Shown: positions 6,104 to 28,340, numbered from the stretch's first letter. The stretch: 64,000 nucleotides of DNA from a virus (IMGVR_UViG_3300014205_000204:20485-84484); one strand, 5' to 3'. Numbers and translations are program-made. The notes: a model not told the origin generated them from the sequence alone.

Positions 6104-7204
6104 ATGCCTATCCTCCGAGCAGATAATAGGCTGTTGACCAAGTCTCAGCCTTACACGTTCACGGTCGGTAACCTCGCGTCAGGGGTCAATGCCGTCGCCG
6201 CCGCTAGGGTGATGGATTCCGGGTTCTCCGCCGATGACTTCATCCTCGTCGGCGAGATGGGCACGGAAACTGCCGAGATCGTGCAGATCGACAGCTTCGG
6301 CACGTCAACCTTCAACCTGAACGGCACTACGTCATTCGCCCACCCCGACACTACCCGCGTCACCCGCGTCCCGTACGACAAGGTACAGTTCTACTGGACT
6401 GCCACGGACACGTTCGACACCGATAATCCGGTCGGGGCAGCCGTGACGGTCCATACCGATTCCTGGTACACGCAAGTGGATGACACGTCCCATTCCACGG
6501 GGTACGGGTGGGCGGTGTTCCTCAATTCCGACAGCGGCGACATCGCGGCTTCAACGTCGCCGATACCGTACTCCAACTTCTCGCGCCGAACCGTCAAGCG
6601 GGTCCTCGATTCATTCTGGATGACGCTTGGTTCCACCGACCGCAAGCACGTCACCCTCGACATGGCCATGGAGTGGCTGAACGAGGCGTACGACAAGGTC
6701 AGCAACGCCTACGGCATGGTCAACGAGGATCATGCCTCGTCCGACGGCACCGACACCATAGCCGTCGTGTCCGGCACATCTAAGTACCTCCTGCCGGAGG
6801 ACTTCGACGAGATGCTGTACATGACAGTCGACGGCACTAGGCTTGATCCCACGCCGTCGCGCGACACGTACGACAGCGGCGACTGGATTGACACTCGCTA
6901 CACGATCCGCGGGCAGTACATCGAGTTCTCCCCCGCGCCGACGTCGGACTACACCGTCACCTACAGGTACCAGAAGCTCCAGGCTGAGCTGACGTCATAC
7001 CACCAGGTAATCGACCTGCCGAAGCGCGGCTTCAACATCCTCAAGGACTACATGCTCTTCCGCGCCTCCACGGCGACCAAGCGTCCGGACCTTGCCGCGC
7101 ACTACGCGCTCTTCGACAATGAGGTCAAGGAGATAGTGGCCCAGGCGATCAACCTGGATAATTCCATGGACTCGTTCGGAATCTCCGACCAGGCCTGGAG
7201 CTAA
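6104..7204 (+). CDS. head-tail adaptor / tail tubular A-like protein
   Basis: C-terminal half with YLLPEDF...IEFSPAP...YRYQ pattern; position before nozzle-like gene. Confidence 0.6.
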   Translation: MPILRADNRLLTKSQPYTFTVGNLASGVNAVAAARVMDSGFSADDFILVGEMGTETAEIVQIDSFGTSTFNLNGTTSFAHPDTTRVTRVPYDKVQFYWTATDTFDTDNPVGAAVTVHTDSWYTQVDDTSHSTGYGWAVFLNSDSGDIAASTSPIPYSNFSRRTVKRVLDSFWMTLGSTDRKHVTLDMAMEWLNEAYDKVSNAYGMVNEDHASSDGTDTIAVVSGTSKYLLPEDFDEMLYMTVDGTRLDPTPSRDTYDSGDWIDTRYTIRGQYIEFSPAPTSDYTVTYRYQKLQAELTSYHQVIDLPKRGFNILKDYMLFRASTATKRPDLAAHYALFDNEVKEIVAQAINLDNSMDSFGISDQAWS

Positions 7205-11164: not shown

Positions 11165-13675
11165 ATGCCCATAACACCATTCTACGTCTACAGGCAGGAT
11201 GGGACGTACTACAAGCTCCCCGACGACGTCCCAATGACCCGCGAGGAGATTAGACAGGCAAACTCCGGAGCTTACCCCGTTCGCGTCCTCACGGATCCCA
11301 TGCAGATTGAGATGTTCATCTACGAGGCAAGGAAGGGCAGCGAGGCGCTCAACTCTTTTAGGAACTTCATCGGATCGAACACTTGGACTTCAGAGCAGAA
11401 GCTTGCCTACATCAAAAAACTTAACGACACGATCCAGGGCTACTCGAAGATCGCTTACCAGGCTTCTCCCCAGCTGACTGTGGGAGGAGAGAACGTCGGC
11501 CCAGGGCAGCTGACTAATGAGCTGTCAGGCTGGCACGTCTACCGCGATGCCGGAAAGTATTACGACAGCGAGACGGGGCAGGAGGTGTCGCAAGACGACG
11601 TCCACTCCGCGCTCGAGCAGGGCAGCGTCGTCTTCGATGCTGCCCCTGACGTAAAGAAGGCCACCCTTTACCCGCCGTCAGGCGGCGAACCGGTAGTCGT
11701 GGCAGTGGGTTCGGCCCAGGCATCGCAGCTTCAGTCGAAGGGTTATACTCTGGCGCCGAAACCAGACGCCACTGACTCCTCCACTCCCGCGGAGGGAACG
11801 TCATCCAGCGAAACGAAATATCCTGTCGCCCCGACTGGCATCAAGTCAGTACCGGATTCATCAAACTATTTCCTTGTCGAGTTCACAGACGACCCTACCC
11901 CGCACGACGATTCTACGTCCGCGGGCATTTGGCTTTACGTGAAGAACGAGGGGACGTATAGGCCCATTCCTGACGACGCGACCATGATCAGCCTGTTCGG
12001 AGAGGACAAGTTCAATTCAATCATGAGCAACAGAGTCAAGATGTCGATTTCCGAGGCTCTCGCCTCCCCCGAATGGAAGGGCACCATCCTCGGGACCGAC
12101 TATGCCCCGAGGGGAAACGGCTACCTCCCGACGTTCACGGCCAATACCGCGACCGTGAAGTACGGCTTTAACCGCGACGCCGAGCTTGAGAAGAAGACCC
12201 TCGACAGGACACTGGACATCATGTCCGTATTCGTCGACAAGCAGATCATATCCAAGGAATCTTTCGACAGGATCTTCACCCCTGGCAACAGCGAGGCCGC
12301 CATGTACGTGGAGGCGCTCACCTACGGTGGATACACCCTCGGTGACGTCTGGCGCGACATACGCCTTCAGGAGCTGGCACTGGTCGACCCGAAGTACGCC
12401 GGCCTGCGTGCCGTCAGCCCGGGGATGCAGGCGGTGGACTACAAGCGGACTTCCAACTTCGACGACATCGTCGATCCGGCGATCGACCTCATGATCCCGT
12501 CAGAGGTGATCGCTACGGCGCTAAAGACAAACGTCGGAAATGCCTCCACGCTCGTCAATGCCCCGCTCTACACGATCGCTGACGAGTTTTTCTCTGATGT
12601 TGGCACTACCCCGGACTGGACAGACCCGGCCGTCCGCGAGGAGGCGAGGAAGATCGAGGCGTTCTATTACGACCTGATGGACCAGACGCTCCGTGCGCAG
12701 ACGGAAGAGCAGAAGCAGAAGGCCGATTACGACTGGAAGAGATTCAGGGAGAAGGTCATGAAGCAACTGAACATAACGCTTTCCGATAACGCCATCGAGG
12801 CGTGGGACCAGCTGCAGCAGGCTTTCTCGGCCTTCAGGGAGCGAGGCCTCGCCGATACAGGCGTCCAGAGGGAGGCTACCGACCGCTTCCTCAACAAGGT
12901 AAGGCGCGAGGACCAGAGGAACCGCGAGAATGCCGACGAGAACATATCCGACCAGGAGATCGAGCAGCTAAGGACATACGGCACTCCAGAGGAGATCGCG
13001 GCATACGTGAACCGCGTGGGAGTCGAGAAGGCCAGGGAGGTCGGCCTCATCGCGCCTGATGCCATGAGGAACGCATACTCCATCGAGAACCTCCGTAAGG
13101 TCTCTGCCTCCCACGACAAGAACGGCAATCTGATCTATACCGACGGTAACGGGGCATTCTATTACGGCGCCATGGAGGACGGCAAGCTGGTCTATCGCGA
13201 CAAGGATGGGCGACTGGCCGACACGGCGACCCTGAAGACGGTCACCAACATGACAGACGATGAGCTCAAGAACCTCCAGGGCCAGTACATCGACGATCGG
13301 GGATACCTTACGTCGACAGCCGAGAGGACATTAGCGAAGAACCTTCAATCCAACGCCGTCAGCAGGTTGAAATACCAGCAGGACAAGCAGGCCAGTGACG
13401 CCGACTCCGCCCACAAGGAACTTCTCGACAAGGCAGGAGTGAACCTCAGTAGCTGGCTGAAGACTGACGCTTCCGGAATGCCAAGCGCCGATAAGGCCTA
13501 CCCGTTCTCCAGCGGATTCACCCTCATGAGGAAGGTAAATCCAGGAGAGAAGATCAAGGTTCCGAACGTCGACATCCTAGGGCGTTACGCCGGCGGCAAG
13601 ACATCCATGCTGGAGGAGAAGGACGCTAACGGTGACATTTACCTAAAGGAGGGCGCAGAAGTCCTCTGGCAATAA
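11165..13675 (+). CDS. putative internal virion/ejection protein (836 aa)
   Basis: Large, helical/coiled-coil C-half; position after tail genes. Confidence 0.55.
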   Translation: MPITPFYVYRQDGTYYKLPDDVPMTREEIRQANSGAYPVRVLTDPMQIEMFIYEARKGSEALNSFRNFIGSNTWTSEQKLAYIKKLNDTIQGYSKIAYQASPQLTVGGENVGPGQLTNELSGWHVYRDAGKYYDSETGQEVSQDDVHSALEQGSVVFDAAPDVKKATLYPPSGGEPVVVAVGSAQASQLQSKGYTLAPKPDATDSSTPAEGTSSSETKYPVAPTGIKSVPDSSNYFLVEFTDDPTPHDDSTSAGIWLYVKNEGTYRPIPDDATMISLFGEDKFNSIMSNRVKMSISEALASPEWKGTILGTDYAPRGNGYLPTFTANTATVKYGFNRDAELEKKTLDRTLDIMSVFVDKQIISKESFDRIFTPGNSEAAMYVEALTYGGYTLGDVWRDIRLQELALVDPKYAGLRAVSPGMQAVDYKRTSNFDDIVDPAIDLMIPSEVIATALKTNVGNASTLVNAPLYTIADEFFSDVGTTPDWTDPAVREEARKIEAFYYDLMDQTLRAQTEEQKQKADYDWKRFREKVMKQLNITLSDNAIEAWDQLQQAFSAFRERGLADTGVQREATDRFLNKVRREDQRNRENADENISDQEIEQLRTYGTPEEIAAYVNRVGVEKAREVGLIAPDAMRNAYSIENLRKVSASHDKNGNLIYTDGNGAFYYGAMEDGKLVYRDKDGRLADTATLKTVTNMTDDELKNLQGQYIDDRGYLTSTAERTLAKNLQSNAVSRLKYQQDKQASDADSAHKELLDKAGVNLSSWLKTDASGMPSADKAYPFSSGFTLMRKVNPGEKIKVPNVDILGRYAGGKTSMLEEKDANGDIYLKEGAEVLWQ

Positions 13676-13676
13676 C

Positions 13677-14273
13677 ATGGCAAACATACCAGAAACCAGC
13701 TTTATCCCGCGCGCCGGCACGGATATCGCGAAGAACATGTCCGCCGGCTTCGCTAAGGCTTCCGCTGCGATGAGGGGCATGTTCGGCGCCCAGCCGGGCA
13801 AGACGGCGGCAAATAACCAGGGTTACGCCGCCAAGGCACCGCAGGCGACGTTCAGTTCCATCGCCCCGTTCAAGGCCAAGGACATCGGTACCGTCACTAC
13901 GAGGCCTAACGAGTCGACACGGTTCGAGAAGTCGCATCCCGGCATCGACATCGCGAACAAGGAAGGAACGGCCATCCCGGCATTCACGCCGGGCAAGGTG
14001 ACGAAGGTCGTCAGCGGCCAGAAGCCCGGTACGAAGGGATACGGGAACTATGTGGTGGTCACGGACAGCCAAGGGAACAGGCACCAGTACTCGCACCTCC
14101 TCAAGACGTACGTGAACGTCGGGGATGCCGTGGGTGCCGCGAGTCCCGTGGGTGCCATGGGACGCACGGGCAGCGTTTATTCAACCAGCGGGGGCACTGG
14201 GACGCACCTTGACTATCGTGTCGCTGACGCGTTCGGGAAGTGGATCGACCCTACTAAATACGTCAGCATCTAA
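13677..14273 (+). CDS. M23 family peptidase (virion-associated lysin)
   Basis: HPGIDIA (HxxxD), GYGNYVVV, YSHL, GTHLDY (HxH variant). Confidence 0.85.
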   Translation: MANIPETSFIPRAGTDIAKNMSAGFAKASAAMRGMFGAQPGKTAANNQGYAAKAPQATFSSIAPFKAKDIGTVTTRPNESTRFEKSHPGIDIANKEGTAIPAFTPGKVTKVVSGQKPGTKGYGNYVVVTDSQGNRHQYSHLLKTYVNVGDAVGAASPVGAMGRTGSVYSTSGGTGTHLDYRVADAFGKWIDPTKYVSI

Positions 14274-14275: not shown

Positions 14276-16651
14276 ATGGATAAAACAAAAGCGATAAGGG
14301 CGATGATGGCTGACCCAAAGTCCAGGAAGTCCTTGGCTGACGCCCTCAAGGAACCCGGAGGATCGGGCAAGCGGAAGTCTGCCCATTCGACATTAAAGAT
14401 ATACGGTCGTCTTGCCGGAAAGGCGGATGGGCAGGGAGGGAGCGAAGATTTTACGTCAGCGTTCGTGGATAGCCTAAACTCCAGGGTTACTGGTCCAAGA
14501 TCAACCCCAGTGCAGGGTCAGTCGTCTAACGCCGTAGAGGCCATCACTCCGATGTCCGATACCCCGACTATCACTAGGCAGGCACAGGGTTTTGACTGGC
14601 AGGGACTCTTGAAGCCTGATTACTTTGAATATAATGAAACGGACCCGAACATAAAGAGTCTAGGCAAGGCTGTCTCGAACGTCGGTACTTTCGTGGTAAA
14701 GCCTCTTGCTGCAGTCGGGCGCGGCATACCAGTCGCCGGCGACTGGCTGGTATCAGCGCCGTACAGGGCTGCAGTAGGCCTTGGAAGATGGATGGCAACG
14801 GTCCCGAAAGTCGAACAGTCAGTCACTTCAGAAAAACAAGAAGCTGCCACGACATCAACTCCAGGCACGGCTTCCGCCACTGGTTCTCAAGAGACAGCTG
14901 GCACTGGTACGGGCACTGGTACGGGCACTGATACGGAGACCAAGAAAGAATATGAGAAGCCATACGAGGAATGGACTGACGATGAGAAGCAGACAGATGC
15001 GCAGAGCAAGTTTGACGAGCGGAAGACAGGCCTGACCGAAACCGGACAGATTTTGAAACTGGCGGAACAAATCCGTGCCGAGACTGGCAAGACACCGAAT
15101 ACTGGGTACCCGGACGTTGACCTTGCCCTTTCCCTGACGTCGTCGATCGGGTCTGCCGTCACTTCCGGCAATGTTGACGAGTGGTGGGCTGGAATTACTG
15201 CTAACGGGAATACACCCAGCAAGACGCAGGAGATACTGTATAAGTCGGTGAAGCAGGGGACTGGCGAGTCAGGGTTCAGGGCTTCCTTCCTGAGCAACCC
15301 GGACGCGATGGCCGAGGTCCTCGGTATCGAAGCGTCCGTGCTTCGCAAGTTCCCGATCTTCGCCATGGGCACCCCAGACTACGGTGCGCTGCGAAAGATC
15401 GTCGAGCGTGAGTACCAGGTCGACGCGTCATACGACGAGATCATGAACCTGGACTCCAGGCACCGTTTGGCCTCCAACGCGTTCAAGTCATACGTGGTGG
15501 ACAAGGACCTTTACCTCAAGGACATCGAGAAGAAGAAGGCAGAGCTCCGGCAGTTCTACGCCAATAACGACATGTCTGACCCGTTCGTCAGGCAGCAGTA
15601 CGAGACGTACGGGGGATGGCTGGACACGGCATACTCAAACAAGATCGCCGACTATAACGTTCTCCTGACAAATGCCTCGGAGTACGAGACAGAGGACTAC
15701 AACAGGTCGCTTGCCCGACTCAACATCCAGCTGCAGCGCGCAGAGAACCAGTTCACTGCCGTATCGAAGACCGTCGATGACTTCTGGACGGGCGCCAAGG
15801 ATGCCCTTGACGCGGCATACGTCTCGGCGCAGACAGGCATGAACGCCTCAGACAAGACCAGAAAATCGCTGTTGGACATCCTTGAGCAGAATCAGAAGAT
15901 CAAGAACCTCTTCCCGGGCTACGAGGTTGACACCAAAACAAAAGTCACTGCCTTTGATACCGAGAATGCCATGAAGGACTTTATGACAGTAGTGGACGTG
16001 AAGGACAATGAAGGCAATGACATAAAGAAGCAGCAGCCCCTCGTGACCACGTACGGCCAGATGGAGAACTTACTCGCCACCAAGAGGTACAGCGCGACTG
16101 CTGACAACGATCAGTTCAGAAAACTGTGGGCCAACGTGATGGGCCAGTACATCGCCGACGATATCAGATTGGGAGATTTTAGCGGGGCCAAGAGCACCTA
16201 TGCCGCGATGATCTCGGACATCCCAGGTGACGCTGATATGTTGATGCAAAAGTACGCGACCGACGAGAATTCGCTCACGGCAGAAGAAAGGAGATCATGG
16301 GCGAAAATAGAGATGGTGAACAGTGAGGTGGCATCAAGCGTACAGGCGGCGGCCAGTGGTGACCTGAGCAGCAGGCTTAACGACTATGCCGATAAGGTAA
16401 AGGAGGCGTTCAGCTCAAAAGCCATGCCACTTGACGACAACGAGTGGGAGAGAAAGTTCCTCTCCGAGATAAAAGACCAGTTCGCCATTTCCATGCTAAA
16501 GATTTTGAGGCCATCGTATGCTGACGAATACGAGAAAACCGTTCTCAGTTCCGATGACGTCGAGGGTGAGATGAAGAAGTGGAACAGCAGCGACTTTTAC
16601 AAGCAGGTTGTGAATGACCCAAATCTGGTGGACGCTTACATTTCCTTCTAG
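14276..16651 (+). CDS. putative ejection protein (791 aa)
   Basis: Long helical ORF with T/G low-complexity linker. Confidence 0.55.
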   Translation: MDKTKAIRAMMADPKSRKSLADALKEPGGSGKRKSAHSTLKIYGRLAGKADGQGGSEDFTSAFVDSLNSRVTGPRSTPVQGQSSNAVEAITPMSDTPTITRQAQGFDWQGLLKPDYFEYNETDPNIKSLGKAVSNVGTFVVKPLAAVGRGIPVAGDWLVSAPYRAAVGLGRWMATVPKVEQSVTSEKQEAATTSTPGTASATGSQETAGTGTGTGTGTDTETKKEYEKPYEEWTDDEKQTDAQSKFDERKTGLTETGQILKLAEQIRAETGKTPNTGYPDVDLALSLTSSIGSAVTSGNVDEWWAGITANGNTPSKTQEILYKSVKQGTGESGFRASFLSNPDAMAEVLGIEASVLRKFPIFAMGTPDYGALRKIVEREYQVDASYDEIMNLDSRHRLASNAFKSYVVDKDLYLKDIEKKKAELRQFYANNDMSDPFVRQQYETYGGWLDTAYSNKIADYNVLLTNASEYETEDYNRSLARLNIQLQRAENQFTAVSKTVDDFWTGAKDALDAAYVSAQTGMNASDKTRKSLLDILEQNQKIKNLFPGYEVDTKTKVTAFDTENAMKDFMTVVDVKDNEGNDIKKQQPLVTTYGQMENLLATKRYSATADNDQFRKLWANVMGQYIADDIRLGDFSGAKSTYAAMISDIPGDADMLMQKYATDENSLTAEERRSWAKIEMVNSEVASSVQAAASGDLSSRLNDYADKVKEAFSSKAMPLDDNEWERKFLSEIKDQFAISMLKILRPSYADEYEKTVLSSDDVEGEMKKWNSSDFYKQVVNDPNLVDAYISF

Positions 16652-16663: not shown

Positions 16664-19600
16664 ATGAAAATGACATTTGAGCAGTCAGTGAGGATGCGAA
16701 ACCTTCTCTCCGGCAGGAAGTTCCAGACTCCGCTGGCCGAGCCTCCCGTTGATGTACCACTGGCTAAGACAAAGGAGCGCCGGACAAAGCCGACCGGTCC
16801 TTTTGACGTGCCTGACCAGCCATGGGAGGTCAAGGGAGACGATAAGTCAATGACCTACAACGTGCAGTCAGGGATGCCAGGGTCATTCACCCCGTCCCCC
16901 CCAAACACGGTCGTACCGTCTATCCGGCCGTCGCAGGGGTTCAAGAAGATCGTCAAACCATATAACAGAGGGTCGGGCACGGAACTCGAGCACGCCGTGC
17001 CTGTCTGGCTGGGCGGAACCTCGGAACTGCCCAACCTCGTGAACATGAGCAAGAGCGGGCACGAGAAGAAGACGGCCGTCGAGGCCGTCGGGTGGACTCT
17101 CTGGAATGCTCAGCTCCAGGACCCAGAGAAGTTCGGGAAGATGATCAAGGACGAGATCGGGTATGAGATATCGATACCTGAGCTCCGTGCAAAGTCAATC
17201 GTCATGTCCAATGACCCGAACACCTTTGACGTGTCCGGTCTCTTCAGCAAGGGATACGATTCAAGCATGATCTATGACCTTCCTGGAAAGACCACGGAAG
17301 ATCAGGTGGAGCTGGCGATCAAGACGTGGAAGAAGTGGCATCGCCCCCTCAGCGAGAGGACGACGTGGGAGAAGGTAAAGGAAGCGGCGCACGCTTTTTG
17401 GCTGATCATGCCGGGACGCGACTTGCTCGGGGACATGTCCAAAACCGACAGGGACGTCTTGGATGACGTAAAAAGCACGGTATCAGGATGGACTGAGGAC
17501 AAGTTCGGTGACAATATAGTCTCGTCAACCGCGAAGGGAGTAGTTTCAGGAGCGACACTCGGTTCAGTCGCCCCGGAGTTGTCAGAGTTCGAGGAGGAAC
17601 ACCCACTCCAGATGCTCGCTGGACGAACTGCCGGCGAGCTCGTCGGATCATCAGCGTATTTTCATTTTGGTGGAAAGCTTCTCGGCAAGGCCGTCTCGCC
17701 TCTTTTCAAGATTGCCGACAAAGCCAAGAAAGTGTCTGGATTGGCTGCGACAGGGGAAAAGCTTAAGTGGTACGTAAACGCCCTCGATGATCTTTCGGGG
17801 AACGCCGACAAGCTTGTTACGCTGGTCATGAAAGACCTGAATAAGGCTGAAAAAGCCTTATCGTTAGCCAGGAAGGCCCAGCACGTGGTTACTACCATGG
17901 GTACTTTTGCATTCGTAGGCCAGGCATACGCCGTCGATGATAGGCTTCCCGAGATAGAAGCTCGCTATAATCGCCTTAAGCTGGATACTGCCCTCGGGTT
18001 GGTCCAGGTGGCGCTTCCAGGAGGGTTCCTCCGCGGCGGATACGGCACCAAGCCGACGGGTGCCGAGACGGGGCTTCTCGGCACGCCAAAGGGATCATCG
18101 ATAATCGGGAGGCTGAACCCATGGAACTCGGAGGCCGCTTCCGGATTAGCCGGAATGAACCTTACCGGCAGGGCAAACGCCTTGGGACTGTCGTTCATGG
18201 GAAACAGCGTCGCCGAGTTTATGCTTAGCGACGCGAACGCCATGGAGGCCATGCAGAGCGCCCTCGTAATGACGGCCATGCACGGCCTAGGCACCGTATC
18301 GAGGACGCCTGACGCGTCCCTGGTCGTCAGGTCCCGCGCCATCGAGCTCATACGCGCAAGGACCCCTAGGTCCTATGAGTCACTGGTAACCGGGAAGTCC
18401 AGCCCTGATTCCTTCAGGGTTGAGTCGACCGCCGAACTCGTCTCGTCATACGAGGCCGCCGGCATGACCCCCGAGGCCTCAGCCGAGCTGCTTAGTGGGA
18501 GGGTTGCCGCGGAATGGGAGGTGGCGTACAGGCTTCACCCGACCGACGAGGCCGCCCGCAACCAGTACATGAGCGAAAGGTACGTGACGATCCTCCGCGA
18601 GGAGATCAGCCGCAGCGGCATGGCTGCCGTAACCGGCAAGGCCGACGCTGATGCGGCGTATTCCTCAGTCGTCGACGCTGTCGAGGCCCCCCAGGACACC
18701 AATAGGGCCATCGTGGAGCTTGAGGCGGCCAAGACAATGCCGACTGAGGAAGCCAAGTCACTCGGCCTGGTTTCCGGTGACGGCAAGCTAAACCTGAGCG
18801 TCAGGTACTTCGCGGAGAGGGACACGACAGGCTCCCTAGTCATCAAGGCCGTACGGGATGACGGGACGACCTTTCCGGTCAATCGCCTGACCGGCCGGGC
18901 GGCACAGGACTTCAACGAGGCCACGGGCAGCGCGAAGATCACGGAAGTCCTGCCGATCAGGTTCAGCGATGAGAGCGGGAAGACGACCATCTCCGTTGCC
19001 CCAACGGAAGAATCAATCAGTAAAATAATACCTCTTAACGATGCGTACGACGTAGCCGTAAGCTCCCTCAAGGAATTGCGCGGGCAGCCTGACATACCAG
19101 TCACCGATTTCAGCAGGATCGACGTCCTGAACGACTTGTCCCTGTCCGGCCTCAACAAGACGACAGCCAATGAGCTCTCGAACGCGATCTCGACACTGTA
19201 CCGGACTTCGGTGGGCAACGACCCGGCGGCCTTCCAGAAGGCCATAGCCAACGTCCACGCCAAGGCAGGCGTTGAAGTGCCTTGGTACTACAAGACGGCC
19301 AAGTACGTCGCCAATCGTGACGCCAACAGGGTGATCGGGGAAGTCATGGCTGCCGTGGGGAAGCAGGGAACCAAGACATCGCCCATAAGGGCCGAGTACA
19401 TCAGGTCTGTCGCCAGGATGGCGACTTCAAGACCGCCTGCGGACGGGGGCGCGAAGGCTACCGGCGAGGTGATCTCTTCAGCGACGAAGGCAGTGAAGGC
19501 CGTCACCCGCGGCGCGAAGTTCGACAATGCCATGGACACTGACCTCTCATACGGCTTCCAGGACAGGAAGTCCGACATAACCGAGAGGTCTAGGGCCATC

Positions 19601-20542
19601 GTGGAGTCATTAAGGGACGAGGGATATTCTAACGTGACTGCCGATGAGGCAAGGAAGATAGCGGAATTCCCTGTAGGCGAGAGACGGGAGGCGTATGAGA
19701 GCCTCAAGTACCAGAAGGACCTCAAGAGGGCATCCGCCGAGATGTCTTCCTACGACGTCACGGGTGCTGCCGCGTTCGCGGTGGTCCCAAGGCCGTCTGA
19801 GGGAAGCTATTGGATAGAGATGCGTGCCGCGCTTGACCAGCTGGAAGTGGCGTTAGCATCTGAAATAAACCCCATTGACAGGAATGCCGTCATGAGGGCT
19901 ACCAACCAGGTGGACAGGCTCGCCGAGATCTCCAAGATAGTCAGGAAGAAGGCCAAAGACATGGAGATCGACGCCAGGGAGCGCCTGACGAGACTGGCCG
20001 ACGACATGGATGCCGAAGTCGAGATCAATAGGGAATACGAGAGGATGCGCCTGGATCGCCTTGAAAAAGGAGAGGCTTCCAGCAGGGAAGCCGAGTATTT
20101 CCTGATCACCGGCAACGTCAGGGCCATGGCCGACAGGTGGGAGAACCTGGCCTTCAGGGACTTCAACGAGATGGTGGCGGGGGCAGTCAAGTCCAGGCGC
20201 ATTACTGGCAGGGAGGCAACGGCCCTAAGGGGATACCAGAAGGCCAAGGTCAGGGAGACGCGCGATGCCGTATCCAGGATAGGCATCGATGAGATGAAGG
20301 TCGCCATATCAACCGATGCCGGATTGGGCAAGAAGTTCAAGAGGCACGCGAATGCCGCGTTGGGGGAAAAATGGAGAGACGACATGCTCTTGGATCCTGA
20401 CCTGTCAAATACCGAAAGGATCCTGCTGTTAGAGCTCCGCAAGAAAGTCCTTGACGATCCCATGCAGAGGGAACTCGACATCGAGAACGAAAGGGCAAGA
20501 AACGCAGGGTGCACTTACGGTCCCGCTGCGATCATCAACTAG
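16664..20542 (+). CDS. large virion protein (1292 aa) with N-terminal HNH-like motif
   Basis: ELEHAVPVWLGGTSELPNLVNMSKSGHEKKT at about 16982-17075; hydrophobic central region. Confidence 0.65.
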   Translation: MKMTFEQSVRMRNLLSGRKFQTPLAEPPVDVPLAKTKERRTKPTGPFDVPDQPWEVKGDDKSMTYNVQSGMPGSFTPSPPNTVVPSIRPSQGFKKIVKPYNRGSGTELEHAVPVWLGGTSELPNLVNMSKSGHEKKTAVEAVGWTLWNAQLQDPEKFGKMIKDEIGYEISIPELRAKSIVMSNDPNTFDVSGLFSKGYDSSMIYDLPGKTTEDQVELAIKTWKKWHRPLSERTTWEKVKEAAHAFWLIMPGRDLLGDMSKTDRDVLDDVKSTVSGWTEDKFGDNIVSSTAKGVVSGATLGSVAPELSEFEEEHPLQMLAGRTAGELVGSSAYFHFGGKLLGKAVSPLFKIADKAKKVSGLAATGEKLKWYVNALDDLSGNADKLVTLVMKDLNKAEKALSLARKAQHVVTTMGTFAFVGQAYAVDDRLPEIEARYNRLKLDTALGLVQVALPGGFLRGGYGTKPTGAETGLLGTPKGSSIIGRLNPWNSEAASGLAGMNLTGRANALGLSFMGNSVAEFMLSDANAMEAMQSALVMTAMHGLGTVSRTPDASLVVRSRAIELIRARTPRSYESLVTGKSSPDSFRVESTAELVSSYEAAGMTPEASAELLSGRVAAEWEVAYRLHPTDEAARNQYMSERYVTILREEISRSGMAAVTGKADADAAYSSVVDAVEAPQDTNRAIVELEAAKTMPTEEAKSLGLVSGDGKLNLSVRYFAERDTTGSLVIKAVRDDGTTFPVNRLTGRAAQDFNEATGSAKITEVLPIRFSDESGKTTISVAPTEESISKIIPLNDAYDVAVSSLKELRGQPDIPVTDFSRIDVLNDLSLSGLNKTTANELSNAISTLYRTSVGNDPAAFQKAIANVHAKAGVEVPWYYKTAKYVANRDANRVIGEVMAAVGKQGTKTSPIRAEYIRSVARMATSRPPADGGAKATGEVISSATKAVKAVTRGAKFDNAMDTDLSYGFQDRKSDITERSRAIVESLRDEGYSNVTADEARKIAEFPVGERREAYESLKYQKDLKRASAEMSSYDVTGAAAFAVVPRPSEGSYWIEMRAALDQLEVALASEINPIDRNAVMRATNQVDRLAEISKIVRKKAKDMEIDARERLTRLADDMDAEVEINREYERMRLDRLEKGEASSREAEYFLITGNVRAMADRWENLAFRDFNEMVAGAVKSRRITGREATALRGYQKAKVRETRDAVSRIGIDEMKVAISTDAGLGKKFKRHANAALGEKWRDDMLLDPDLSNTERILLLELRKKVLDDPMQRELDIENERARNAGCTYGPAAIIN

Positions 20543-20548
20543 AGTGAT

Positions 20549-23500
20549 ATGCCAAAAATAGAATGTCCAGAGATCCTGGGAAACATCAGGGAGATATCGG
20601 AACGTAACGCCAAGGAGAAGGATAAGTTAGACGCGATAATGGGCGATCTGCTTGGTTTTGACGTACCCAAGGCACGGGCCGGGGGTAACGAAAGGCCAAC
20701 CGTAAGGATGGTTCCCCTACCGGCGGATGACATCGCCAGCTTACCTGACGTCGGCAAGAAGATTGCCGACGTGGTTTCAGATAACAGGAATACGAAAACC
20801 CTTCCGGAAGTGATCAGCGAGATCCCCAAGGATAAGGCCTACCTCTATGACGCCGTCCCGAAGGGACATTCCGTCACGGTGACTGATCCGGTCACGGGGG
20901 AAAAACGGCCGGAGACGGTACTGTACGGCGAGGAGGTCATGAAGGACGCGGCAACCATCATCGCCGAGGGATCCAAGTCCGGAAAGTCCATCAAGGAGAT
21001 CGATGACGGGGTTATGGGCATGATCTACAAGACCTATCCGGAGACTGTCCCACAGTACCTTTCCCAGAAGTTCGGCATCGCCCGGGCAAGTTCAGACCGC
21101 TTGACTGCCGAGTTCCTGAGCAGGTCGTTCGCCACCGTAGCCCCTGAGAGGGTGACGGCCATGATGAACGGCGGAGTCGTAAAAGGAGAGTTCAATTATC
21201 ATGAGCTTCATGCGCTCAACGATTCCCAGCTCAACAATGTCGCCCAGCAGCTGAGCACGGAGATGACCAGACTGCTCTCGGAGATAGGAACCCTTAGGAA
21301 CATCGCCGAAAAGGCCAAGTCAGGAAGCAGGGGCGGGACCAGGGGAATCAGCAAGGCCAATGTGCTCGAGGCCAAGTTACCGCCAGAACTCCTTGACGCC
21401 CTTGATCCGGGTCAGAGAAGCAGGTATCACGTGGCGTACAACAGGCTGATGAAAAACAGCGGAGGAAAAAAAGGCGTAGGCAGGTCAATCATGGAGGTCG
21501 TAAAGGCCAAGAACCTTTTGGATTCTAAAACATCCTCGTTCAGGGACTTGGGCATATCCTCATCCATTGAACATCCGATCTACAACCCCGATGAGGCGCT
21601 TGCCAGCATGGCGAGATCATTTGGCGAGTTCGATTACCTGGGAGCCAGGCTGAGAAAGGCCATCGACGACGGGCATCCTGCCGTGACCGAGTTCCTCGAC
21701 CCTGAATCAGGCATGACGCCAAACCAGTTGCTTGAGCAGATAGACAAGACCGACAAGGTCAGGATAACCCAGGCGATGGAGTCGGCCCCATCCGTGGAGA
21801 TAAACGCCAGGAACATCGCCAGCAGAAGGGCAGGGAATGTCACCACCGAGAAGATGGCGGTTGGCAAGACGGCTGAGGGCCCGAAGAAGACTGCCCCGCA
21901 AAAAGCCTCCCTAAAGGACTACTTTACCGGTGATGAGATCGAGGAGTTCAGGGTTTCAGTCGAGAATCGCGTAGCCGTCATGCCTAAGGATACCCTCATG
22001 AAGACCCACCTCATGGAGATGGAACTTAACGAGATGGAGAACGCGTTTTTCGACCGCGTCAAGAACAGGCTGTACAACTCTAGGCGAAATTACGGTGGAA
22101 AGAAAAAGTCGACGGCATCTTCTCAAGTCACGATAAACCCCTTCGACCTGGTCGACCTTCGCTTCGAGCTGAGGAAGGTCGCGGCCGATACGATCGACAA
22201 GGCAACAGGCCCCGGGTTCGTCGAGAGCGAGCAGGCCAACAGGCTCTCGTCCATGCTGAGGGAAGTCATAACGCCGAAGCAGATGAAGGAGACCCTCGAC
22301 AGGTACATCAGTACCGTAAACCCAGACCTCGAGACCGTGGCCGCTTACAGGGTATTCGAGAGGATGTATGACTCTGGGGAGATAACAGGCACCAGGAGAG
22401 AGTGGGAGGACATAGTGAACCTCCAGAAACCGGGAGCCTATCCCATCCAGTCCGACAGGGTGCTGATGAGCACCCTCCCGAAGGAAACGAGGGACATGTT
22501 CGATGACATCTACGCTAGGGTAGGACGGTTCGAGAGCGGCTACACGATCACCGAGGATGGGATAAGGAAGAGGTACCGCACTGAAGTTGACGGCAAGCCA
22601 GAACCGATCGTCGCCAGGAAGGTCAGCCGAGCCCTTTCAGAGCTGATACTCAACAACAGGATCACCACCGACTTCAAGGCCAAGTGGGTCACCCCGAACC
22701 CTGAAGGCCAGTACCTGAGCAACGATCTCGTGCGCCTTTACCTGAACGCCAAGAGGGGCCAGGCAGGCAGCGAGAGGCTCGTCGATTACGGTGGCACTAC
22801 CATTGACGTCGGCCACGGCAAGGTAACCGACAAGAGGAACTGGTCAAAGAGGGAAGATACCTACGAGACCGAGGCGGCCTTCACCGTCAACGGCAGTGAC
22901 ATCACGGCGACGTTCACTGGCATCGGCGGGGAGAGGGTAACGAGCAATTTCAGGCTTGACTTCAGGGAGGCCATCGACAAGGTGATCGTGACATACGACC
23001 CTGCAGGTAAGTACCACGTCACCGCATACCGCGAGATTCCCGGGGGGTCGCGCAGGAAGAGCCTGTACGATTCGCTCAGCGCCGACGAGTGGGAGGACAG
23101 GTGGGATTACCTCAAGGCTGATGACGATGTCGCGATCGCCGACGTCACAAGGAAAATTGACGAGAGCGGGAAGGTCGTCACCTCCGAGGGATGGCTATCC
23201 CGCATCCTGAACAAAAAGGCCCTGGTCAACGACGGTATAGACAAGAGGACGGCAGCGATTTTTGCAAGGCGGGCGCTCCGGTCCGTAACAGACGAGAAGG
23301 TCATGTCAAAGCCCATAGTCGAGCAGATGACGCTGTTCAACAACGGATTGTACGAGAGAGGCTTCAGGCTGCCGGATGAATTGCCGAACGAGCCGGAATG
23401 GCTGACTAACCTCAGGGCGATAAGGAAGGTTATCGGAGACCGCGAGACTTACATGACCCAAGAGCCTGACCCGACACAACCTACGTCGTTCGGGCCGAAC

Positions 23501-26500
23501 GACACGAAAGTCAACGTAAGGAACCTGTTCGAGAGGCTTAAGCCCAAGGTTCAGGAAGAGGTCAGGTCCCTTCGTCTTGCCCATGAGAAGGGGTACCTTG
23601 CCGAGGACACTCCAATTACCTTAGCCATAGGTGAAGCCGTCAAGGCGACTGAGGGGAAGGAACTTGGGGTCATAAGGGATGCCATCCGGCAGGCCATCGA
23701 GAAGGCCGAACCGGACCATGCTGAAAACGTCCGTGTAGTGACCATGCAGGCCCTTCTTGAGGGTAAATCGATAGATCACGTTGCGAAGGTCGCGAGGGAA
23801 GGGTATAAGGTCAAGCTGGATAACGAGATCGAGAAGTACATGCAGTACGGTGACGATGCGTACCTGTCGGACAAGTCACGCGAGTATGTCGAGGATTACC
23901 GCAATTACTTCAGCAAGGAGGCCCTGTCGGAGATTGGGGCCGTCCAACGGGCAGACGCGGAGGATGGCGATGCCGGTTCAGCCGCAAGCGACAGGACGCT
24001 CTCGAGATACGAGGAAGCAGCGAGCAGGGGAGTCGAGATCGAGACCGTCAATGATGAGGGCAAGCCCTCCGGAGCTATCGGCATGAACGTGATCGACGGG
24101 GAATCCACGATGTTCAGTGGGGAGACCAGCCTGGTCGATACCTATTTCATTGATACCGTCCCCGGGCTTAGGAAATGGCTGGACGGAAACAACATGGTAG
24201 CGGAAGCGGAAGGCAGGGCCATGTCGAAACTCGAGGACACGATCGCCTCCAGGATAACCGGTGATGACAGCATGATCAGGCTCGATGAGGCCTTGACCCG
24301 GGCAGATACCGAATCCAGCCTTGAGGCTCGCGCTGAAAAGTGGAACGAGGGAATGAAGCCGATGGACAGGGCCAGCAGGGAACTGGACGATAACCCGGCT
24401 CATCCGCTCCGGATGCTTTCCGGCAATTCCGGCATGTTCTCCCGTGAAGTGGCAGCATCCGACGCGAGAGTCGCGATAAGAGAATCCACCGGGGAAACGC
24501 AGGATTACGCCAACGTGAACATCATAGAGAGAATGATGTCAGAGATGGAACCGCCCCTCGGAGCGGACATGAAACCGCTGGTCATGCCTCTTGATGGAAT
24601 GCGTCCAGACTATTACGCGACAGCCATCAGTTCCCCGGGGGAGCACGGCCTGACGCAGCTGCTCATGACAGGTGAGGGACGTGAATGGTCAGCCAGGGTC
24701 ATGAGGTGGAAGCCGCTTGCCGACGTGTTCTACCCTGAGTTCAGGGTAGCTAGGCTGAAGAACGCCCGAGACCCATTCGACAGTGCCGTGCGCACGATTT
24801 CCGAATACTTGTACGGCGGCAAGGGCATCGAGAACATGGGGAGGGATGTTATAAAAAGGGAAAACGGTGAGGAAGCAGTCTCGACGAAGCCCGACAACGT
24901 ATCTGGGCTGCTGGACGATGCCATCGCATCTGCCGTGATCTACGGCGTGAAGAAAGGCATGGTTGACGGCAGGTATATGGTCACCCTTGACGAGTCAAAC
25001 GGCGGCAGGTTCCTCAAGGAGTCTGACTTCGGCAGGGACGGGATCATAAGGAAGTCTGCCGTGATGCCTGAAACTCTACGGGAGAAGGCTGACAGCCATG
25101 GGGCTGCCAATCCGGAGTGGCTGGCAAGCCTGAACGATTCCATTGCCTCTGGGGACATGGCGAAGGCGTATGACCTGCTCATCTCCGCTCCGTTTGGCAA
25201 GACGCCTGTTGAGGTTGCCTGGATGCGTGATGCCGAGCGGCTTTCCGGCCTGGTTAAGCTTGTCGTTAATGCGGACAGAGCGGGCATCAACCCAACGGAT
25301 CTTTTCCTCAAGGCTACCGAGCTGGGCGAGAGAAGGGCAAGGCTGTTCGGAGACGAAGCGACACGGCTAGAGGACACAAGCTACAGCAGGGAGAAGTCGT
25401 CAGAATGGCGTGCCAAGCTGTTGGACATCAGGAAAGGGGAGGGCAGCGGGCCGCGACAAGATAGTCAAAGCGTTTTACTAAAGGCAACCGAAGAGCAAAA
25501 GAAACTCGCTATAGACCTTGATCGACACCTTGATGGCGAAGTGACGCTCAAAGACGAGGAAATCTCCAGGATACGCTCCAGGATGGACGAGCTCCAGAGG
25601 GAAATCGATACCGAGATGGACAGGAGAGGGGCAGGGAAGGGTCTCGGAGTCAAGGCGACACGGCTAGAGAGCGTAAGATCCAGCGGGGAGAAGCCGTCAG
25701 AGCGGCCCGCCAATCAACCGGAAGAGAGCCTTAGAGACGTGATAAGCCTTGCCCTCGATGTCAGCGACGGGAACGAGGCTGCAGCGAAAAACCTCGTTGA
25801 TGCCGTCAGAGGACGTCCGGAGATGACAAGGGAGGCTGACAAAGTCCTCAGGGACATGTCAGATGCCCTCGAGAAGGACATCTCCCGCATGAGGAATGCC
25901 GGGGAGGACGGTGAGGCTGCCCGCCTCGCCAAGGTGAAGGATACCGTAGACGGAACCAACGACACGATAAGGAGGCCGTTCGTCGAAAGCCTGCCCAAGG
26001 GCACGAAGGTCAGGTACCCGACTAAAGAGAATAAACTGAAGGTCGAGAACATCTCCGACAGGATCATCGAGACGACTGGCGAGGCCACGGTGGCGTCTCC
26101 TGAGGTCATCGAGGCCCAGAACGCGGGAACGGTCAAGGCGAGGGTCGCCGCGACCGTCAGCCAAGTGAAGGCCCATAAGGTCAACTTCCCTAAGGAGTAC
26201 GCCGTCGTCGACATCGAGACGAACGCCAGGAAGATGGATGACCCCGACGCCAAGATCAAGCAGATCGGCGGCGTCGTGGTGAAGGACGGGAAGGAGGTCA
26301 GGAGGTTCGACTTTCGGATAGACGAGGAACTTGCCGGCACTGACCGCAGCAACCGGATGGCGGAAGTCCTGGACGGTTTCGAGAAGGAGACGTCGGGGCT
26401 CCCCGTCGTCGGCCACAACTTCTTCCGTTTCGATGCCCCGTTCATCGCCATGGAAGCCAAGAGGATCGGCAGGGCCGCCCCGAAGGAGATAACCGATCCC

Positions 26501-26920
26501 GACAACATCTATGACACAGGGTTCCTTTACCTGGGTCTGAAGGAGGGTGTCTACAAGGACGACGTAATGTCCTTGGGCGACTTCTACAACCTGATGGGCA
26601 GCAACAGGTCCGGTAACTGGGCGCTGCAGCATCTTAAGGATCACCTGCTCACCAGGCTGGGCCACATGACTGCCGAGGAGGGGACGGCCCTCGAGGCCCA
26701 TGAGGCCGTGGGAGATTCCATCGTAACGTGGAAGCTCCTCCAGTTCCTTGAGGCCGAGAACGCCAAGAGGTCCGCGGGGGAGAAGGGCACGGACCTGGAA
26801 GAGGTGACCAGGCTCATCCAGGAGGCTAAGGCCGGCGAGGAGGCTGAGGCCAGGAGAAAGAGGGGCGAAGATGTCTTCGCGTCTTTCGCCAGGATGGTCA
26901 GGGAAAAGGCAGGAGAATAG
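20549..26920 (+). CDS. giant virion protein (2123 aa) with C-terminal DEDDh 3'-5' exonuclease domain
   Basis: YAVVDIET (ExoI), VGHNFFRFD (ExoII), AHEAVGD (ExoIII) at about 26195-26750. Confidence 0.75.
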   Translation: MPKIECPEILGNIREISERNAKEKDKLDAIMGDLLGFDVPKARAGGNERPTVRMVPLPADDIASLPDVGKKIADVVSDNRNTKTLPEVISEIPKDKAYLYDAVPKGHSVTVTDPVTGEKRPETVLYGEEVMKDAATIIAEGSKSGKSIKEIDDGVMGMIYKTYPETVPQYLSQKFGIARASSDRLTAEFLSRSFATVAPERVTAMMNGGVVKGEFNYHELHALNDSQLNNVAQQLSTEMTRLLSEIGTLRNIAEKAKSGSRGGTRGISKANVLEAKLPPELLDALDPGQRSRYHVAYNRLMKNSGGKKGVGRSIMEVVKAKNLLDSKTSSFRDLGISSSIEHPIYNPDEALASMARSFGEFDYLGARLRKAIDDGHPAVTEFLDPESGMTPNQLLEQIDKTDKVRITQAMESAPSVEINARNIASRRAGNVTTEKMAVGKTAEGPKKTAPQKASLKDYFTGDEIEEFRVSVENRVAVMPKDTLMKTHLMEMELNEMENAFFDRVKNRLYNSRRNYGGKKKSTASSQVTINPFDLVDLRFELRKVAADTIDKATGPGFVESEQANRLSSMLREVITPKQMKETLDRYISTVNPDLETVAAYRVFERMYDSGEITGTRREWEDIVNLQKPGAYPIQSDRVLMSTLPKETRDMFDDIYARVGRFESGYTITEDGIRKRYRTEVDGKPEPIVARKVSRALSELILNNRITTDFKAKWVTPNPEGQYLSNDLVRLYLNAKRGQAGSERLVDYGGTTIDVGHGKVTDKRNWSKREDTYETEAAFTVNGSDITATFTGIGGERVTSNFRLDFREAIDKVIVTYDPAGKYHVTAYREIPGGSRRKSLYDSLSADEWEDRWDYLKADDDVAIADVTRKIDESGKVVTSEGWLSRILNKKALVNDGIDKRTAAIFARRALRSVTDEKVMSKPIVEQMTLFNNGLYERGFRLPDELPNEPEWLTNLRAIRKVIGDRETYMTQEPDPTQPTSFGPNDTKVNVRNLFERLKPKVQEEVRSLRLAHEKGYLAEDTPITLAIGEAVKATEGKELGVIRDAIRQAIEKAEPDHAENVRVVTMQALLEGKSIDHVAKVAREGYKVKLDNEIEKYMQYGDDAYLSDKSREYVEDYRNYFSKEALSEIGAVQRADAEDGDAGSAASDRTLSRYEEAASRGVEIETVNDEGKPSGAIGMNVIDGESTMFSGETSLVDTYFIDTVPGLRKWLDGNNMVAEAEGRAMSKLEDTIASRITGDDSMIRLDEALTRADTESSLEARAEKWNEGMKPMDRASRELDDNPAHPLRMLSGNSGMFSREVAASDARVAIRESTGETQDYANVNIIERMMSEMEPPLGADMKPLVMPLDGMRPDYYATAISSPGEHGLTQLLMTGEGREWSARVMRWKPLADVFYPEFRVARLKNARDPFDSAVRTISEYLYGGKGIENMGRDVIKRENGEEAVSTKPDNVSGLLDDAIASAVIYGVKKGMVDGRYMVTLDESNGGRFLKESDFGRDGIIRKSAVMPETLREKADSHGAANPEWLASLNDSIASGDMAKAYDLLISAPFGKTPVEVAWMRDAERLSGLVKLVVNADRAGINPTDLFLKATELGERRARLFGDEATRLEDTSYSREKSSEWRAKLLDIRKGEGSGPRQDSQSVLLKATEEQKKLAIDLDRHLDGEVTLKDEEISRIRSRMDELQREIDTEMDRRGAGKGLGVKATRLESVRSSGEKPSERPANQPEESLRDVISLALDVSDGNEAAAKNLVDAVRGRPEMTREADKVLRDMSDALEKDISRMRNAGEDGEAARLAKVKDTVDGTNDTIRRPFVESLPKGTKVRYPTKENKLKVENISDRIIETTGEATVASPEVIEAQNAGTVKARVAATVSQVKAHKVNFPKEYAVVDIETNARKMDDPDAKIKQIGGVVVKDGKEVRRFDFRIDEELAGTDRSNRMAEVLDGFEKETSGLPVVGHNFFRFDAPFIAMEAKRIGRAAPKEITDPDNIYDTGFLYLGLKEGVYKDDVMSLGDFYNLMGSNRSGNWALQHLKDHLLTRLGHMTAEEGTALEAHEAVGDSIVTWKLLQFLEAENAKRSAGEKGTDLEEVTRLIQEAKAGEEAEARRKRGEDVFASFARMVREKAGE

Positions 26921-26926
26921 CAAATC

Positions 26927-26971
26927 AAAAAAGCGCGTGACCCATAAGCCTCTTGGGTCCGCGCTTTTTTT
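26927..26971. terminator. bidirectional intrinsic terminator between convergent arms
   Basis: AAAAAAGCGCG-TGACCCA...TGGGTC-CGCGCTTTTTTT. Confidence 0.85.
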
Positions 26972-26976
26972 AATCG

Positions 26977-28035
26977 CTATTTTTTCTTCGTGGCGTTGCC
27001 CTTCTTGGCTTGGGCGGGTGCGTCCCCATTCTGCGGAGCGTTGACTTCCTTGATGAAGGCCATCTCCGCATCGTAGATCTTCTTCCTGAGCTCGGCGTTC
27101 TCCTTGACTGCGGTGATCGCGGCTTCCCTGCCTATCGCTATCCTCTCGTCGCCGAAGTAATAGCTTGTCCCCCTCATCGTGACCACCCCATCCTCGAGCG
27201 CGGCGTCGATCATCTCCATGGCCATGTTGAAACCCCCCTTGAACATCATCTCCGTCTCGTACGTCCTGTAGGGCGTGGAGCACTTGTTCTTGGTGTTCTT
27301 GAGGGCGATCCTGATGCCGACCTTCTCCTGCCCGCTCTTGATGTCTTCCTTCTTCCTGCACTCTATCCTGATCGAGCTGTAGAACTCGATGGCCTTTCCT
27401 CCGCTCGTGACCGTCTTCGGCCCGTACATGGACATGGTGTCGCGGAGCTGGTTGATCGCGAGGATCGTCGTGCCGGTACGGGCCATCAGCTGGATCGCCC
27501 TTCGCGCCCACTTGGAGACCAGACGCGCGCGAAGCGCCATGCTGTCCTTGCCCAGGTCCTCGTCGAACTCCTTCTGGGAGACGAGCGCGTCGATCGAGTC
27601 GATGACGATGAGGTCGATCGCGCCGGACTCGATCAGCTCGTTCACCGCGTCAAGGGCCGTCTCCCCTATCTCCGGGGAAAGGAACACCAGGCCCTTCGTG
27701 TCCAGTCCCACGTTGCGGGCGTACCGGGAGTCGAACGACTTCTCCATGTCGACGAGCGCGACCGTGCCGCCGCTCTTCTGGATCGACGCCGCTATCCACG
27801 AGCAGAGGACGCTCTTGCCGCCGGATGGCAGGCCGGCGACCTCGATGAGCTTGCCCTTCGGCAGCCCGCCTCCGGCCATCCTGGCGAAGCCGACGGACTC
27901 GATGTCCATCCAGGTCGGAACGACCTCCTCGCCCTCCTCGAGTATGGACGCGAAGTCGTCTTCCTTGTTGATCTTCCCCAGCGCGCTCATGAGGGCCCGC
28001 TTCCTTTCCTCAGGAGTCATTTCTTCTTTTTGCAT
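26977..28035 (-). CDS. recA: RecA/UvsX-like recombinase
   Basis: GGGLPKGKLIEVAGLPSGGKS, LIVIDSIDALV, INQLRD, TSGGKAIEFYSSIRIE. Confidence 0.95.
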   Translation of the reverse strand: MQKEEMTPEERKRALMSALGKINKEDDFASILEEGEEVVPTWMDIESVGFARMAGGGLPKGKLIEVAGLPSGGKSVLCSWIAASIQKSGGTVALVDMEKSFDSRYARNVGLDTKGLVFLSPEIGETALDAVNELIESGAIDLIVIDSIDALVSQKEFDEDLGKDSMALRARLVSKWARRAIQLMARTGTTILAINQLRDTMSMYGPKTVTSGGKAIEFYSSIRIECRKKEDIKSGQEKVGIRIALKNTKNKCSTPYRTYETEMMFKGGFNMAMEMIDAALEDGVVTMRGTSYYFGDERIAIGREAAITAVKENAELRKKIYDAEMAFIKEVNAPQNGDAPAQAKKGNATKKK

Positions 28036-28340
28036 GTTTTCTTTCGTTTATTTTTCCTCTCCCCGAAGAACTGGTAGGTTCCGGTGTCCCTGACCTCCCT
28101 CATGCCTTTCCTGTGCGTCCACTTCGTGCCGTCGCAGTTGCTCGCGCAGACGACCTCCCGTGGGTACGCGAGCTCCAGCTCCTTCTTGCCTACCTGGAAC
28201 GACTTGAGGACAGTCGCGGCCCCGCAGACGGCGCATGGGCTGTCCAGTAGCCCCTGTATCCGCTCTTCGTATACGGCGACCCTGTGGTCCCGGTCAAGGA
28301 AGTTCGGAGTGATTCCGTTGTTTTGCATAAAACTTTTCAC
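28017..28340 (-). CDS. hypothetical Zn-binding protein
   Basis: CAVC and CASNC motifs; coupled to primase-helicase stop. Confidence 0.55.
   Translation of the reverse strand: MKSFMQNNGITPNFLDRDHRVAVYEERIQGLLDSPCAVCGAATVLKSFQVGKKELELAYPREVVCASNCDGTKWTHRKGMREVRDTGTYQFFGERKNKRKKTCKKKK

Follow-up and report, generated by a model that had tools for sequence, protein, structure and literature searches.

A giant protein in the candidate ejection block of an uncultured SU10-like phage ends in a complete DEDDh exonuclease domain

What would a DnaQ-like exonuclease do at the C-terminus of a 2123-amino-acid (aa) phage protein whose gene stands among those for the particle and DNA injection? The question is raised by a 64,000-nucleotide (nt) stretch of viral DNA (IMGVR_UViG_3300014205_000204:20485-84484; hereafter the window), in which an open reading frame (ORF) at 20549..26920 (+) encodes this giant, P0001. 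It is the last and largest gene of the particle/DNA-injection block, and the last structural/ejection gene on the + strand. The source is an uncultured, tailed phage of the short-tailed SU10-like type with a genome of ~98 kb. An initial annotation had placed an intact DEDDh exonuclease at 26195-26750 and had proposed that the protein is virion-associated and injected. The explanation that we prefer overall, with somewhat less than even confidence in it as a whole, is that the giant is packaged and ejected and that its exonuclease trims 3′ ends, with a leaning towards the phage's own genome end.

The exonuclease occupies residues 1876-2072 of the giant (26174..26764, +), and our analysis confirmed that it is a complete, real and divergent DEDDh (DnaQ-like) 3′-5′ exonuclease domain. 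All three of its motifs fall inside the range annotated at the outset, and their five catalytic residues are invariant in the giant's one long homologue, described below. ExoI (VVDIETN) supplies D1888 (nt 26210-26212) and E1890 (26216-26218), ExoII (VGHNFFRFD) supplies D1962 (26432-26434), and ExoIII (AHEAVGD) supplies H2051 (26699-26701) and D2056 (26714-26716), satisfying the catalytic order of D-x-E, D and H-x4-D. These five residues show little or no variation across nine stand-alone relatives. The domain also contains an extra insertion with a conserved DTG.LY.G motif, common only to a clade of small phage exonucleases, and it is the only DEDDh domain detectable in the phage.

Profile searches place the domain in the DnaQ-like group. 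The PHROG family phrog_192, annotated 'DNA polymerase exonuclease subunit', matched residues 1877-2080 (E=1.2e-9); single-sequence searches matched several NCBIfam DEDD models at 1e-4 to 1e-2 and TREX2 in the PDB at E about 0.6. Pfam RNase_T (PF00929) gave no match at E<=1 with the domain alone and none in a scan of the phage contig, C4. The same model matched 8 of 10 small relatives scanned, 7 of them above its gathering threshold of 24 bits; the giant's domain, falling below that threshold, is thus a divergent family member. A clade profile (A2) made from the domain and its 10 closest relatives matched, in the PDB, Cas2-DnaQ (6e-24), the PolC exonuclease (4e-23), the DinG exonuclease (1e-16), Pol III epsilon (1e-13), RNase T (1e-12), ExoX (1e-10) and TREX1 (4e-10). 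The RNA-specific enzymes ERI1 (1.6e-4) and CRN-4 (4.5e-3) were far weaker matches to A2 than the top four, Cas2-DnaQ, PolC, DinG and epsilon, which act on DNA. The A1 profile matched Cas2-DEDDh at 8e-5.

Dissection of the domain and a structure search, which the initial annotation had proposed as a check, agreed with the profiles. AlphaFold, run on the domain alignment, gave a model with a mean predicted local distance difference test score (pLDDT) of 85.7, and Foldseek matched it to Cas2-DnaQ, the DinG exonuclease, PolC, TREX1/2, Pol III epsilon and RNase T with a probability of 1.0 and E-values down to 4e-6. The predicted fold is RNase H-like alpha/beta, agreeing with solved DnaQ-like members. 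Among predicted viral structures, the best matches were small phage exonucleases or polymerase-attached ones, never a virion giant.

On the strength of motifs and model, the domain is very likely a true DEDDh exonuclease that is probably active. A contrary explanation is that it is catalytically silent, a DNA-end-binding or structural module in a pilot protein that holds the genome terminus. Its divergence beyond the reach of Pfam would fit this, as would the existence of end-binding pilot proteins in other phages, such as T4 gp2. We regard silence as improbable, given that the five catalytic residues are kept in two phages ~29% identical and in the stand-alone relatives; silent domains usually lose catalytic residues.

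The fusion of this domain to a giant recurs in a second phage. A HMMER scan of residues 925-2123 against 1.84 billion representatives returned one long homologue, P0002 (1865 aa), together with small proteins (142-263 aa) that for the most part match Pfam RNase_T. P0002 is collinear with P0001 from about residue 170 to the end and carries the same terminal domain with all five residues. The two giants are about 29% identical overall, and the exonuclease is their best conserved part (34% identity vs. 21% elsewhere). The phage of P0002 is represented by two contigs, one from Logan (56 kb) and one from JGI (59 kb). Its genes are arranged as in the first phage: a BNR protein, an 848-aa protein, an M23 peptidase (232 aa), proteins of 833 and 1237 aa and the 1865-aa giant, followed in convergent orientation by recA and a PrimPol-helicase with an intein.

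The giant's lineage is rare, with two phages known. When 5.8 billion proteins were searched by word index, only the query came back, and nothing when the exonuclease domain alone was used; no giant homologue came from IMG/VR, from GTDB genomes or from a degenerate DNA pattern (WKPL.D..YPE). JGI metagenomes yielded only the phage of P0002, and a local hidden Markov model search of the whole metagenomic bin found no paralogue. Contigs of a near-identical lagoon strain carry 38 changed codons in the giant gene, 25 synonymous and 13 non-synonymous, with no indel or stop; those in the exonuclease domain are three synonymous changes and K1912R. The kept fusion and the bias of the changes towards synonymous ones indicate that the fusion is under purifying selection.

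The closest sequence relatives of the domain are stand-alone phage exonucleases (phrog_192 and the viral RNase_T clusters P0003-P0012), which are 28-32% identical to it and mostly viral. They have its extra motifs but are unfused and only 140-260 aa long. P0012 (215 aa) is encoded two genes downstream of a portal-MuF fusion, within a head-gene module on an unrelated 54-kb phage contig (L023 3403-6648); the genomic context of the other stand-alone relatives was uninformative. This single case hints that the exonuclease clade may have been linked to the particle more than once.

Upstream of the exonuclease, the giant consists of an acidic body without a recognisable fold (residues 1-1599; 20549..25345, +) and a charged, coiled-coil-like, poorly conserved linker (residues ~1600-1875; 25346..26173, +). 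Conserved blocks in the body lie at residues ~172-228, 427-622, 794-1000 and 1315-1445. In the linker, residues 1601-1800 show 13-18% identity to P0002 with many gaps, and family scans returned only coil-type chance matches. A candidate relative, P0006 (1410 aa), was set aside as an artefact, a repeat protein matching 38 linker residues 13 times. No match to residues 1-1875 was found in Pfam, PHROG, NCBIfam, PDB profiles or the ESM Atlas, the last of which gave no usable match for residues 1160-1600, and an AlphaFold model of residues 780-1600 from the two-sequence alignment was unusable (pLDDT 33). Beyond the exonuclease, a C-terminal tail of 51 charged residues (2073-2123; 26765..26917, +) has no counterpart in P0002. 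A beta-clamp motif considered in this tail was rejected, there being no Q-type motif and the tail itself missing in the homologue. At the other end of the protein, the giant's sole cysteine is Cys6, in MPKIEC (20549-20566); M1, I4 and C6 are unchanged in P0002, and the next ~160 residues barely align.

The size and position of the giant, and a body without a recognisable fold, are compatible with another explanation, that the giant is a virion-carried RNA polymerase joined to an exonuclease, like the virion polymerases of N4 and crAss-type phages. We consider this very improbable. The defining metal-binding signature of two-barrel polymerases is DxDxD in a double-psi beta-barrel (PMC10770324). 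Neither DxDxD nor DxDG occurs anywhere in P0001, and no cluster of acidic residues is conserved between it and P0002; no polymerase family in Pfam, PHROG, NCBIfam, the PDB or the ESM Atlas matched it; and the few invariant histidines outside the exonuclease form no T7-type HD motif. A polymerase reading of the giant body is not supported by these comparisons.

Whether the giant travels in the particle is addressed by its gene neighbourhood. Downstream of an SU10-type head-to-tail adaptor (6104..7204, +; Pfam SU10_adaptor E=5e-21), which marks the phage type, the genes encode proteins of 622, 672 (BNR) and 836 aa and an M23 peptidase, then proteins of 791, 1292 and 2123 aa. The 836-aa protein (11165..13675, +) is the first of a cysteine-free block and matches no family; it contains no cysteine. 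The M23 peptidase (198 aa; 13677..14273, +; 0 Cys), already recognised in the initial annotation, matches PF01551 (E=2.5e-17) and a PHROG metallo-endopeptidase (1.4e-20) and is, by these matches, the peptidoglycan-cutting member of the block. A 2-nt gap separates its gene from that of the 791-aa protein (14276..16651, +; 0 Cys), which has no family match and is 36% identical to its homologue in the second phage (L004). The 1292-aa protein (16664..20542, +; 1 Cys) bears an HNH-like motif at residues 103-141. Successive genes of the block are 1-12 nt apart, and promoter and terminator signals within it do not exceed chance. The + strand block ends at a bidirectional intrinsic terminator (26916..26981), a 22-nt inverted repeat bordered on the outside by runs of A and T, which lies between the giant gene and a recA converging from the other strand. 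The assignment of the exonuclease to the C-terminus of the last structural ORF was thus correct.

This layout is shared with phage SU10 (Kuravirus), whose portal, capsid protein and adaptor are of the same type as in this phage. In SU10, according to passages of the published study, the five genes that follow the one for the tail needle encode gp20-24, proteins found in virions but lost once the genome has been released, and gp20 is a wall-degrading enzyme (PMC9509320). The SU10 record shows gp24 (1473 aa) as the last gene before a terminator and opposite-strand genes. Both phages begin the series with the wall enzyme and end it, just ahead of the terminator, with the largest protein, so that the giant occupies the position of gp24, a proven ejection protein. 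The wall enzyme is a transglycosylase in SU10 and an M23 peptidase here. Neither the SU10 record nor those passages of the study name a nuclease domain, and gp24 itself was not scanned for one.

The three proteins that precede the giant (198, 791 and 1292 aa) are also close in size to T7 gp14, gp15 and gp16 (196, 747 and 1318 aa), in which cysteine is similarly scarce. The T7 set differs in having neither a fourth, 2000-aa member nor a nuclease, and no homology between it and the block was detected. T7 gp16 is a transglycosylase; an ejection protein can therefore bear an enzyme domain at one end.

Cysteine content sets the block apart from its surroundings. The five proteins encoded at 11165-26920 (836, 198, 791, 1292 and 2123 aa) contain 2 cysteines among their 5240 residues, whereas cysteine makes up 1.4% in the genes of the opposite strand (binomial P about 2e-29); the giant has 1 in 2123. 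The tail proteins just upstream of the block have 5-10 each. The corresponding block of the second phage contains 0/0/0/1/1. Among proven ejection proteins, SU10 gp20-24 have none in 2956 residues, and T7 gp14/15/16 have 1/0/0, compared with 1.3-2.7% in T7 cytoplasmic enzymes. The depletion reaches the enzyme domain, with no cysteine in the two fused exonuclease domains and 2-4 in each of the nine stand-alone relatives. Cysteine scarcity is used here as an empirical correlate checked on two proven sets (SU10 and T7), not as a formal criterion.

Because of the SU10-like synteny, the T7-like sizes and the scarcity of cysteine, we conclude that the giant is probably an ejected virion protein. Several results weigh against the packaged, ejected and active enzyme that we propose. 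An hhalign comparison of the giant with SU10 gp24 gave a probability of 0.2%, and tblastn against 50,697 phage records found no similarity of the giant to any of them. The giant matched no PHROG structural family and showed no homology to known ejection proteins. Its body (1850 aa) could not be folded (pLDDT 33). Cysteine depletion also occurs in some virion proteins that are not ejected, including the T7 scaffold and the SU10 needle, and is a correlate rather than proof. With PF00929 below threshold, the case for activity is made by the motifs and the model. Kyte-Doolittle hydropathy (19-residue window, threshold 1.6) showed no membrane segments in the block, a result that we judge to count neither for nor against. 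Virion association and injection, as first proposed, are thus favoured by the synteny with SU10 and by cysteine scarcity, and receive no help from sequence homology.

If the giant is not packaged, it could act late in the cytoplasm, with its exonuclease at work in replication, recombination or DNA maturation. The enzyme might proofread in trans for a replisome poor in polymerases (PrimPol or host Pol III), or it might trim concatemer ends or packaging ends. Some features of the phage suit such a role. The closest PHROG family is annotated as a DNA polymerase exonuclease subunit, and the clusters most similar to the domain consist of phage exonucleases that stand alone. The phage contig gave no match to DNA polymerases of family A, B or C, no other large ORF on it matches one, and the giant gene abuts a module of replication and recombination genes encoding RecA, PrimPol-helicase, SbcCD-like and SNF2 proteins. 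We nevertheless find a cytoplasmic role rather unlikely. The giant gene is on the structural strand, with the bidirectional terminator standing before the replication genes; a cysteine-free giant with a purged exonuclease domain resembles ejected proteins; and a non-enzymatic body of 1850 aa is hard to explain in a proofreader. The C-terminal tail, a possible site for clamp or polymerase binding, is absent from the homologue.

For the ejected giant that we prefer, we infer the following course of events. In an SU10-like phage with a short tail, the giant would be the last of the ejection (internal virion) proteins and would lie in the head beside the M23 peptidase and the 791-aa and 1292-aa proteins. 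At infection, all four would leave through the tail, either preceding the DNA or accompanying it. The peptidase would cut the cell wall, the 791-aa and 1292-aa proteins would probably form a conduit, and the giant would enter the cytoplasm, where its C-terminal DEDDh domain would refold, held on the long flexible linker. D1888, E1890, D1962 and D2056 would bind two Mg2+ ions, with H2051 as the general base, and nucleotides would be removed from free 3′ ends. The ends are most likely to be those of DNA, because the nearest solved relatives act on DNA, and we rate action on DNA 3′ ends early in infection at slightly better than even. The favoured target would be the end of the phage's own entering genome, through resection for annealing or for a recombination-dependent start, or through shielding from RecBCD-type enzymes. 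Ejection proteins are few per particle, as in T7 and N4. We lean towards the own genome end because of these low numbers and because ejection proteins are placed at the leading DNA end, and taken by itself this choice of target remains a tentative one, possible but well short of even.

An anti-defence role is nearly as likely as processing of the own genome end. Here the giant would be ejected in the same way, and its exonuclease would be an effector of counter-defence or host takeover that degrades host nucleic acids with free 3′ ends immediately on arrival. Candidate targets include retron multicopy single-stranded DNA, CRISPR prespacers or guides, Argonaute guides, linear oligonucleotide messengers and nicked host DNA. 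As a full explanation we rank this as a minority possibility, a little ahead of the cytoplasmic one. All of the evidence for ejection applies to it equally, tethering of the domain by a poorly conserved linker is consistent with it, and packaged counter-defence has precedents in P1 DarB and T4 IPI*. DEDDh enzymes require a free 3′ end, so that cyclic nucleotide messengers, which such enzymes do not open, are unlikely substrates; of the signal degradation suggested in the initial annotation, this leaves linear oligonucleotides, or the ends of DNA or RNA, as possible targets. A few ejected copies per particle would do little for bulk degradation, and no defence-related partner or target is visible. 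The 'polyvalent protein' concept would fit an injected effector, and the catalogue of polyvalent-protein domains contains no DnaQ/DEDD entry (PMC5512222).

The neighbouring 1292-aa protein bears on the same explanation through its conserved HNH-like motif, with which an anti-defence exonuclease might cooperate. The motif, ELEH..GG..NL..H.KK (nt 16970-17086, +), had been noted earlier and is invariant in the homologue. It matched two PHROG HNH families weakly (E=0.003 and 0.008), and hhalign aligned it in register with a true HNH protein, again weakly (E=0.028), with the zinc cysteines replaced. Pfam gave no match for it. An HNH reading of the motif is weak.

The phage genome itself is well delimited. 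Positions 1189-64000 of the window correspond to positions 1-62812 of contig C4 (98,690 nt), and positions 1-1188 to the far end of the same contig. The ends of C4 overlap by 127 nt, which makes the window part of a circularly assembled replicon of ~98.56 kb. C4 encodes a large terminase (PHROG 8.8e-38), and an SU10-type portal (Pfam 1.2e-19) and major capsid protein (Pfam 6.3e-31) lie elsewhere on the same circular contig. Near-identical DNA occurs in landfill, groundwater and lagoon metagenome runs from three studies, two of which are possibly the source of the assembly; its presence in these runs indicates that the phage sequence is not a one-off assembly product. None of the runs listed with it is an RNA data set. 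C4 was assigned to a 4.85-Mb metagenomic bin (G000) with a contamination rating of 6.4% and 11 family A DNA polymerase matches on 9 contigs. The bin probably holds several phage contigs, and with such mixed content it does not establish the phage's host. Leaders of + strand genes (for example, 3568-3587 and 11145-11164) are A-rich and without a Shine-Dalgarno sequence, which suggests a host with Bacteroidota-type translation initiation.

Other genes of the phage deserve mention. A fusion of PrimPol with a DnaB-type helicase is split by a Hint/intein domain (28337-30694, -), and the second phage has a PrimPol-helicase with an intein arranged alike (L004 17035-19398). A transposase-like gene for a 402-aa protein lies inside the genome (58706-59914, -; phrog_506 at 3e-92). 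The phage also encodes a Cpn60/GroEL-type chaperonin (L003 1316-2908, +; Pfam 2.4e-25), beside which lies a gene for a 1202-aa protein (L003 3461-7069, +) with no Pfam, PHROG or PDB match; from these searches, a polymerase identity for this protein can be neither assigned nor excluded.

If the domain is active and delivered, it would represent a new enzyme class among the phage cargo that enters before any gene expression. It would bear on the survival of an incoming genome under RecBCD-type attack, on the start of replication in a phage without its own polymerase, and on the disarming of nucleic-acid-based defences by packaged nucleases. The cysteine-free signature, which extends here to an enzyme domain whose free relatives hold cysteines, may be a cheap flag for ejected proteins in uncultured phage genomes. 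It is possible, though we would not expect it, that the injected DEDDh exonuclease is a first-minute counter-defence or genome-end-processing enzyme and the first documented virion-delivered exonuclease. Our literature search found no paper describing a DnaQ-type exonuclease in a virion or ejection protein, and looking for exonuclease or nuclease domains of any kind in such proteins likewise gave nothing relevant. A text search of two papers on related systems (PMC5512222 and PMC10770324) found no mention of a DnaQ/DEDD exonuclease in either, and none of any nuclease in the latter.

Solved DnaQ-like enzymes (Cas2-DnaQ, 8h18 and 8fy9; the PolC exonuclease, 2p1j; the DinG exonuclease, 8zef; Pol III epsilon, RNase T and TREX1/2) agree with the giant's domain in fold and in all five catalytic residues. 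They are stand-alone or fused to a polymerase, a helicase or Cas2, and none forms the C-terminus of a virion giant. Epsilon-type proofreading subunits of Pol III have a partner polymerase and a conserved C-terminal segment that binds it or the clamp; for the giant, no family A, B or C polymerase was found on the phage contig, and its C-terminal tail is absent from P0002. A polyvalent protein, delivered by virion or by conjugation, unites at least two effector domains in one polypeptide and often bears a MuF-type anchor (PMC5512222); the giant has one recognisable domain, and Pfam and PHROG scans found in it no MuF or other known packaging anchor. From the comparison with SU10 and T7, it is probable that the particle of this phage contains a nuclease that enters the cell along with the DNA. 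The enzymes known from ejection proteins of short-tailed phages act on the cell wall or, in a small number of lineages, are RNA polymerases. Giant enzymes delivered by the virion are also known from P1 (DarB), N4 (the virion RNA polymerase) and the Thermus phage P23-45 (gp96). With these, and with the polyvalent proteins, the giant would share the concept of a very large packed enzyme that enters with the DNA; the enzymes of P1, N4 and P23-45 are a methyltransferase/helicase or RNA polymerases, and that of the present phage is an exonuclease.

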